A DNA stretch of 64,000 nucleotides from Escherichia phage ev_rybdy3, in sequence record PQ819470.1, one strand, 5' to 3'. Numbering within the stretch: position 1 is the stretch's first letter; each line of letters opens with the position of its first letter. A model generated the notes under the pieces. That model did not search any database. It was not told the DNA's origin and was given only the letters and a program-made list of their open reading frames with translations. The position numbers were made by a program, and so were the translations under genes. Shown here in pieces: positions 47,141 through 47,458 of the stretch.

Positions 47141-47458
47141 ATGGCAGACCATGTAGGAAAGAGAGATTATGCACAAGAAAGACGTACCGCAATTGCCCGT
47201 GGTGAAACAGGCGTTGGGAGCAAGAGCGGAGATGCTCAGCGCCACCGTGCACGTCGCATCGTTGAAAAGCGCGATGGAAAAGCTGCTGTCAGAGGTAAAG
47301 ATGTTGGACACAAACGAGCTGTCAAGTCTGGAGGCTCTAATGCGTCAAGCAACTTACGTGTTGAATCAGTCAGCTCAAACCGTTCAAACGGCGGCAAAAG
47401 TGGTGATCGAGCTGGAAAAGCGGCTGGAGCACGCAAAGGAGCTTTAAGCTCATCGTAA
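47141..47458 (+). CDS. Small basic low-complexity protein (Arg/Lys/Gly/Ser-rich)
   Basis: AAGGAG SD 7 nt upstream; codon third-position bias matches phage genes; flanked by promoter motif and strong terminator. Confidence 0.5.
   Translation: MADHVGKRDYAQERRTAIARGETGVGSKSGDAQRHRARRIVEKRDGKAAVRGKDVGHKRAVKSGGSNASSNLRVESVSSNRSNGGKSGDRAGKAAGARKGALSSS

Follow-up and report, generated by a model that had tools for sequence, protein, structure and literature searches.

The gene 58 locus and its expression

The window analysed here is a stretch of 64,000 nucleotides (nt) of DNA from Escherichia phage ev_rybdy3 (PQ819470.1), a phiEco32-like Kuravirus that infects as a coliphage. We studied an open reading frame (ORF) of 105 amino acids (aa) located at 47141-47458 of this window. 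Its phiEco32 ortholog is gene 58 (phi32_58), annotated 'hypothetical protein' and flanked by the PhoH-like gene 60 and the exonuclease-less DNA polymerase gene 53; the product is called gp58 below. Over 2.2 kilobases (kb) the locus shares 100% identity with Escherichia phage ev_rybdy8 and 93% with phiEco32, and it matches 98 Kuravirus-type records, mostly at 80-95% identity. Gene 58 belongs to the core set common to all 8 of the 8 phiEco32-like phages compared (PMC8948821 Table S2). The gene is also common to 5 of 5 C3 phages compared, and its holders include 7-11 and GAP52.

The protein has a mass of 10.9 kDa and an isoelectric point of 11.5. A previous reading of the sequence alone had described an ORF rich in basic and small residues, and this is indeed the case: 70 of the 105 residues are G (16), A (15), R (15), S (14) or K (10). 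The label 'low-complexity' given to it at that time is misleading, as the sequence represents a tightly conserved domain family. The codon bias reported in favour of this frame is borne out by codon-usage log-odds of 0.325 per codon, versus 0.072 in the overlapping +1 frame, the long ORFs of the window scoring 0.34 +/- 0.18. Comparison with the relative L007 located 17, 9 and 30 substitutions at codon positions 1, 2 and 3, respectively, corresponding to 26 synonymous and 12 non-synonymous codons. Likewise, changes in relatives sharing 87-89% protein identity are mostly found in third codon positions of the main frame, which, from these comparisons, is under purifying selection. Gp56 of phage SU10 has the same sequence as gp58 except for the last residue, which is missing in SU10, and this 10.8 kDa protein was identified by 2 peptides (18.3% coverage) in mass spectrometry of a polyethylene glycol-precipitated lysate. 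The frame of 47141-47458 is the coding frame, and the gene is real and expressed.

The ORF is preceded by an exact copy of tAATGTAtA, the single-element consensus for the E. coli RNA polymerase carrying the phiEco32 sigma factor gp36 (PMC8948821; PMC4281155). In phiEco32, gp36-dependent promoters have been located by experiment at six genes, among them gene 58 (PMC8948821), whose promoter, P58, is given as TAATGTATA in six related phages (PMC8948821 Table S3). The window contains 5 exact TAATGTATA sites, against 0.6 expected, and exact plus one-mismatch sites are located where P68, P58, P40 and the late promoters should be. The sequence-only reading had proposed a late promoter: the phage-specific element holds, but its class does not, P58 being published as a middle promoter (PMC8948821). 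The locus is an already annotated middle gene with an experimentally located promoter. Transcription from gp36 promoters starts 6-8 base pairs (bp) downstream of the element (PMC8948821), and AATGTA is centred at -11.5 relative to the start (PMC12276001); both spacing rules place the P58 start at about 47111.

The strong Shine-Dalgarno (SD) sequence and the strong terminator noted earlier were recovered as well, the former as AAGGAG and the latter as a stem of -17.9 kcal/mol (z = -4.8) followed by a T-run. The terminator is kept in most Kuravirus relatives, with loop changes among them, and may leave transcription partly unstopped. Promoter, 30-nt leader, single gene and terminator form a compact expression unit (Table 1). 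Judged from these signals, abundant expression is plausible.

Table 1. Features of the gene 58 locus, with positions in the window
Feature	Position	Strand	Basis
gp36-sigma (phage sigma factor) promoter element TAATGTATA, P58 of phiEco32	47096..47104	+	Exact match to published consensus tAATGTAtA
Leader hairpin burying the SD	47104..47135 (5' arm 47104-47116, 3' arm 47123-47135)	+	13 bp, -14.2 kcal/mol
Predicted P58 transcription start, inferred from published spacing	47111	+	Two published rules
SD AAGGAG, 5 nt before ATG	47130..47135	+	Sequence; conserved in relatives
Coding sequence, 105 aa, phiEco32 gp58 / SU10 gp56 ortholog, small basic HNH-like protein	47141..47458	+	Homology, purifying selection, SU10 peptides
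+1-frame ORF, 92 aa, judged not a gene	47169..47447	+	Stop permutation, divergence, codon usage
HNH (beta-beta-alpha-metal) core, residues ~52-86: G56-H57, G64-G65, N67, N71-L72, N80	47294..47398	+	
Basic Gly/Lys/Arg/Ala-rich C-terminal tail GGKSGDRAGKAAGARKGALSSS, predicted helical	47399..47455	+	Alignment
Intrinsic terminator, stem 47462-47485 and T-run	47462..47494	+	Folding; stem 10 bp, 6 G-C pairs

A stand-alone HNH-like family without zinc ligands

Gp58 matches phrog_4590 (function not assigned) with an expectation value (E) of 7.7e-41. Homologs were found in 253 phage records, from phages of Escherichia, Pseudomonas (LUZ24-like), Aeromonas, Proteus, Salmonella, Cronobacter, Vibrio and Photobacterium. 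In a collection of 5.8 billion proteins, 200 of the 378 candidates collected reached E <= 0.001, and an exhaustive profile search gave 398 clusters at 50% identity, nearly all of them stand-alone proteins of 80-115 aa. The few long proteins (450-786 aa) that carry a C-terminal copy showed no Pfam domains to hint at a function, and what seemed to be a fusion to part of a nucleoside transporter appears to be an artefact of assembly or gene calling.

The family consensus reads RDYxQERxTAIARGETGVGSKSGDAxRHRARR ... VDHKKxxKxGGSNxxSNLRVRSxSxNxS ... GGKxGxRAGKAAG. Its first part includes an N-terminal helical hairpin bearing the highly conserved motif RGETGxGSxSGDAxRHRARR. Residues R34, A37, H57, G64, G65 and N80 are invariant in the most diverse set, at least 90% of which also has R38 and N71. 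Within the close subfamily the tail keeps G84, G85, G88 and K93; distant members have a different tail or none. Counted from D-H, the GG pair at +7/8, N-L at +14 and N at +23 reproduce the spacing of the HNH motif in its H-N-N form. H57 occupies the position of the catalytic His at the end of strand 1 and is invariant in alignments of 31, 29 and 120 sequences. The structural Asn, about 14 residues past the His, is found in N71-L72, which is invariant in the close family and kept in at least 90% of the diverse set. N80 stands at the metal-ligand position of the helix, about 22-23 residues past the His, and is invariant in all alignments.

Profile searches with relatives point in the same direction. 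The Pfam HNH model (PF01844) is matched by 21 of 29 homologs at E <= 10 (best 4.5e-4); the relative P0205 exceeds the Pfam gathering score (24.1 vs 21.4), and another relative matches HNH_4. Family members match seven HNH PHROGs and one endonuclease VII PHROG, and the IscB model of NCBIfam is weakly matched by 3 relatives; gp58 itself matches no NCBIfam model. When the family profile was compared with the PDB sequences, the sole match was a Cas9 HNH domain (E = 3.8), which aligns over the motif, ELDHIVPRTDGGSNRHENLAITCGACNKEKG facing the family consensus. The AlphaFold2 model of gp58, with a predicted local distance difference test score of 82.3, contains a beta-beta-alpha unit (residues 54-57, 72-75 and 77-86) preceded by two helices and followed by one. 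The Foldseek list obtained with this model consists almost entirely of HNH domains, with Cas8-HNH at the top, and none of its E-values is significant. Among solved structures, the HNH nickases Gme, GVE2 and I-HmuI are some of the nearest in fold. The family can be assigned with good confidence, on the basis of its motif and predicted fold, to the HNH superfamily, as a zinc-less member of the Cas9/IscB/I-HmuI-like kind.

Gp58 contains no Cys, and none is present in the consensus of 120 homologs. A classical [CxxC]2 zinc-finger HNH was ruled out for lack of Cys residues to form the zinc pairs. An analogy with the RecA-dependent HNH protein Ref of phage P1 was dropped, as it came up in neither the sequence nor the fold searches. 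The Pfam search of gp58 found no KGG (E <= 1), stress, histone-like or other family, so that the KGG-repeat or stress-protein likeness suggested earlier finds no match there; a generic low-complexity condensing protein, also suggested, gives way to a conserved HNH-type core.

Compared with known systems, the family shares with the HNH domains of Cas9, IscB and Cas8-HNH (HNH_4, PF13395; HNH, PF01844) the spacing D-H...GG...N...NL...N-R/K and the absence of CxxC zinc ligands. It differs from them in that gp58 is a stand-alone protein of 100 aa, not a domain of an RNA-guided effector, with an N-terminal helical hairpin and a basic tail of its own and Gly in place of Asp; all similarity scores of gp58 to this type are sub-threshold. 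Small HNH nicking endonucleases from phages and bacteria, of the GVE2 HNH (5h0o), Gme HNH (4h9d) and HK97 gp74 type, have a [CxxC]2 zinc site and adjoin the terminase/cos site (PMC3592412), whereas the gp58 family has no Cys and adjoins the DNA polymerase. In contrast to I-HmuI and the HNH homing endonucleases, gp58 lacks extended DNA-binding domains and is encoded by a core gene, not by a sporadic mobile one.

Public records name this gene in several ways. 'Cas8 protein' (Ptacy1479/1532) and 'NHN endonuclease Cas9-like protein' (Ka1) are labels clearly attached to it, and 'HNH endonuclease' or 'putative restriction endonuclease' is the wording of some others. The unrelated labels 'cytidyltransferase' and 'PhoH-like' are also found on features that overlap the match and may belong to other ORFs.

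The overlapping +1 frame

The second ORF that had been reported to overlap gene 58 in the +1 frame is present (Table 1), within a stop-free stretch of 96 codons starting at 47157. We considered whether both frames could be translated into functional proteins. The +1 frame is also open, or nearly so, in many homologs; across homologs it contains fewer stops than expected under locus-wide codon usage (119 observed vs 169 expected); and it has been annotated before, since the GenBank record of phage LUZ24 retains the +1 frame (gp26, 'contains transmembrane domain') and that of phage Ka1 both frames. Against this, composition explains the open frame. A +1 stop needs an NTA codon followed by a purine or an NTG codon followed by A, and a protein as poor in Val, Leu, Ile and Met as gp58, which has 13 such residues, rarely makes them, hence the long +1 ORF. 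When the same protein was recoded with the codon usage of the phage, 10.6% of trials yielded a +1 ORF of 92 codons or more, a chance of about 0.11 for this gene, with 2.39 stops expected and 2 observed. Permutation of synonymous codons within 44 non-redundant homologs gave 98 stops observed against 98.3 expected (P = 0.51), and a ratio of 1.06 was obtained for the window's long ORFs. We rejected the idea that selection keeps the +1 frame open, as the deficit of 119 vs 169 vanished under this within-gene permutation, and we attribute the deficit to the gene's own codon usage.

Conservation also argues against a +1 product. The +1 frame has 4-7 stops in several homologs. Its peptide is 64% identical where the main-frame protein is 89% identical, and only 18-19% identical where the latter is 67-71%. 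In the LUZ24 clade the respective values are 31-43% and 66-84%, third-position changes being again dominant. Overall, the +1 peptide diverges 2-4 times faster than the main-frame protein. The ATG at 47169 is formed by the codons of Tyr10-Ala11 and is missing in members with Tyr-Lys or with a TAC Tyr codon (L011, L014). Codon usage scores the frame poorly, as stated above, and its product matched no Pfam or PHROG family. Taken together, composition, permutation and divergence do not support dual coding, which we consider highly improbable, and the earlier reservation in its favour falls with the compositional origin of the frame and the lack of conservation of its peptide. In LUZ24 (L084, AM910650), gp26 at 15668-15937 corresponds to the +1 frame, while a 103-aa HNH-like ORF at 15622-15933 is unannotated; as the LUZ24 clade does not conserve the +1 peptide, the gp26 annotation is probably wrong. 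In Ka1 (L097) the two annotated overlapping ORFs lie at 571-883.

A leader hairpin predicted to gate translation

The leader of gene 58 can fold into a hairpin in which ACTCCTTAGTGTA (5' arm) pairs with TATATTAAGGAGT (3' arm), the latter including the whole SD. The promoter element overlaps the 5' arm, and the predicted transcription start falls inside this arm. The probability that the SD is unpaired, computed in silico with the inferred start, was 0.00 in a read-through RNA and 0.84 in an RNA beginning at 47111. The gp36-carrying RNA polymerase would start at about 47111, within the 13-bp hairpin, and transcripts initiated at P58 alone would expose the SD; in read-through RNA of the upstream PhoH operon it would stay buried. 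With the SD exposed only in gp36-initiated RNA, gp58 would be made only once gp36 appears. From folding and comparison, the hairpin probably limits gp58 synthesis to the gp36 phase.

Three unlike types of leader in relatives (L009/L033/L094, L010 and L092) show the same behaviour. Promoter-like elements, TATTGTATA, TAATGTAAA or TAATGTAAT, lie in or beside the 5' arm of a hairpin burying the SD, and the probability of an unpaired SD goes up from 0.03-0.33 to 0.34-0.73. All 87 matching phage records share the 52-nt leader at 96-100% identity. The sequence following the element in the P58 leader is not common to other gp36 promoters, so this conservation is specific to gene 58.

A comparable arrangement of promoter and hairpin is found at the T4 genes e, soc, 49 (endonuclease VII) and I-TevI and at the HNH gene mobE of phage Aeh1 (PMC3014915). 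As in T4 e, 49 and I-TevI, the SD is buried by a hairpin whose 5' arm lies at or upstream of a phage promoter, with promoter-proximal transcripts alone translatable (PMC3014915). The T4 system differs in using a gp55 promoter with TATAAATA, where gene 58 has the gp36 sigma factor and AATGTA, in an arrangement deduced from folding and comparison.

Further features of such leaders were observed. A second gp36-type promoter, TAATGTATA at 2295 on the minus strand and probably P13, shows a P58-like design within 2230-2300: AAGGAGG pairs with TTCTTTGT just past the element, and the probability of an unpaired SD is 0.03 in read-through and 0.81 in promoter-initiated RNA. Folding of three further gp36-type promoters of the window did not reveal SD-burying behaviour. 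The first ten nucleotides predicted for the P58 transcript (47111-47120), AGTGTACACT, form a perfect 10-bp palindrome, the core of which, GTGTACAC, recurs in the otherwise dissimilar L009-type leaders; this palindrome might bind a protein or simply belong to the hairpin. In L089, L095 and L096, at about 1367-1501, the gp58-family gene has no promoter element and is preceded by a 43-44-aa ORF that ends in, or abuts, its start codon (UAAUG in L089), which suggests translational coupling in place of promoter gating.

A core gene linked to the DNA polymerase

Gene 58 sits after nucleotide-metabolism genes (PhoH, ThyX, ribonucleotide reductases and a radical-SAM activase) and 1-2 kb upstream of DNA_pol_A. 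This polymerase-linked position is kept in Kuravirus, 7-11-like, Aeromonas, Vibrio and LUZ24-like phages as well as in metagenomic relatives. Between Kuraviruses and LUZ24-like phages, the HNH-like protein is 57-62% identical, the DNA polymerase about 39% and the primase/helicase about 45%. The gene is a core member of the DNA-replication/nucleotide-metabolism module.

These data bear on the idea that gp58 is a free-standing homing endonuclease, encoded by a selfish mobile gene near the DNA polymerase gene. The HNH fold would fit, and homing endonuclease genes do insert nearby (Endonuclease_7, HNH_3, EcoN5 HNH). However, gene 58 is present in essentially all Kuraviruses, as a core and not a sporadic gene; it is far better conserved across genera than the polymerase; its position is fixed across distant phages; and its product is a single domain of about 100 aa with no extra DNA-recognition domain. 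Universal presence and a conservation stronger than that of its neighbours argue against a selfish element, and we regard this origin as very unlikely.

In some relatives, genes of homing-endonuclease type lie directly downstream of the gp58-family gene (L088 1841-2248, L092 1830-2321, EcoN5). These inserts are Endonuclease_7, HNH_3 or 'HNH homing endonuclease', and the window has the terminator at that position. Past the terminator, 47527-48067 encodes tandem paralogs (84 and 94 aa) orthologous to gp57 and gp56, which are 30% identical to each other (E = 5e-15) and both match PHROG 6814 (function not assigned).

Proposed activity and alternatives

The explanation that best accounts for these observations jointly, to which we give a probability of about 0.75, is that the gp58 ortholog is a stand-alone, zinc-less HNH-like protein whose synthesis is gated by the leader hairpin, the +1 ORF being a compositional by-product. 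Gp58 would be a divalent-metal-dependent enzyme that nicks or cleaves DNA, H57 serving as the general base and N80 as a metal ligand. The basic tail and the N-terminal helices would hold the DNA, and the substrate would be replication or recombination intermediates at middle to late times of infection. From the motif and the model we infer that gp58 is most likely an active metal-dependent nuclease or nickase.

Several points count against this explanation. In Kuraviruses, Gly56 takes the place of the Asp that precedes the catalytic His and acts as a metal ligand in HNH domains of the Cas9 type; this Asp is present in about 85% of the family members scored (95/117 and 68/79), Gly being confined to the Kuravirus clade and a few others. 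Catalysis may consequently be altered or lost in Kuraviruses. Gp58 itself gives no Pfam HNH match, and its matches to HNH PHROGs are weak (E = 0.07-0.16). Our literature search found no nuclease activity reported for any member of the family. Regarding the hairpin, the P58 start was drawn from published rules and not from a mapped start, and the Kuravirus leader is invariant, which precludes strict covariation; support comes from differing leader types that would not align. Finally, the database used for the SU10 proteome probably did not contain the alternative frame, so this proteome cannot exclude it.

The loss of the metal-binding Asp in the Kuravirus clade makes a non-catalytic nucleic-acid-binding protein the alternative to be weighed. 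The HNH fold would then be a scaffold for binding DNA or RNA, and the Kuravirus form would coat, bend or condense DNA or aid replication. The isoelectric point and the basic tail are in line with this role, as is the high output suggested by the gene's own strong promoter, SD and terminator, which would be unusual for a nuclease. In contrast, H57, N71 and N80 are invariant or nearly so, the Gly56 clade included. Furthermore, one Asn as metal ligand is enough for certain beta-beta-alpha-metal nucleases, I-PpoI among them. Gating of translation as seen here is typical of harmful T4 enzymes (PMC3014915). For the Gly56 clade, DNA binding with weakened catalysis is an alternative to be taken seriously; a purely non-catalytic gp58 we consider unlikely.

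A special case of the proposed nuclease is a site-specific nickase that introduces the single-strand interruptions of LUZ24/tf-like genomes or acts in the conversion of concatemers into direct terminal repeats. LUZ24/tf-like genomes carry nicks at TACTRTGMC (PMC3517423, PMC11780129). The gene occurs in all LUZ24-like phages sampled, including Rembedalsseter, in which nicks have been shown (PMC11780129). The papers on these nicks name no enzyme and do not mention HNH (PMC3517423, PMC11780129), the wider literature search giving the same result. The resemblance to nickase folds described above also agrees with this idea. The window itself lends it no support: TACTRTGMC is not enriched there (3 sites vs 1.85 expected, both strands), and a scan for strand-biased k-mers, which in LUZ24, taken as a positive control, revealed GTACTATGAC in 7 copies on one strand against 0.03 expected, found nothing comparable. 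In addition, the family is far broader than the phages with an enriched motif (PMC11780129), and the nick literature yielded no report of nicks in Kuraviruses. We hold this special case to be doubtful; the idea is open for LUZ24-like phages and without support in the window phage. More speculatively, the polymerase-linked HNH-like protein might be the nickase of LUZ24/tf-like phages and the Gly56 variant of Kuraviruses might perform related nicking in replication or terminal-repeat formation, delayed by the hairpin until gp36 appears, a combination that we likewise see as an outside chance.

Other promoter features of the window

At 9790-9815 on the minus strand, TAATGTAGA, probably P6, is directly followed by aggagtataaaATG. 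Applied to this site, the 6-8 bp rule would place the start after the SD, giving a nearly leaderless mRNA. A divergent pair of exact TAATGTATA sites, at 53195 on the minus and 53248 on the plus strand, about 60 bp apart, is found within 53187-53256; as the published list has six promoters, one of the two may be extra. At 14300-15600, sigma-70-like promoters of the form TTGACA...CATAAT are repeated at a spacing of 491 bp, and CGCTCTTTAA(N)AAT occurs four times in 700 bp. The early promoters of the phage probably lie in this region.

Biological implications

The appearance of dual coding at this locus is a compositional artefact that has already misled annotation, as illustrated by LUZ24 gp26 and by the two frames annotated in Ka1. 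In Kuravirus, 7-11-like and LUZ24-like phages, a core gene labelled 'hypothetical' would instead encode a zinc-less HNH-like protein tied to the polymerase module, which provides a concrete candidate, possible nickase included, for functional study. The leader hairpin is a new observation that the sequence-only reading did not contain. By analogy with T4, it suggests that phiEco32-type phages use T4-style translational gating. If true, this gating would add a post-transcriptional layer to the well-studied transcription programme of phiEco32.

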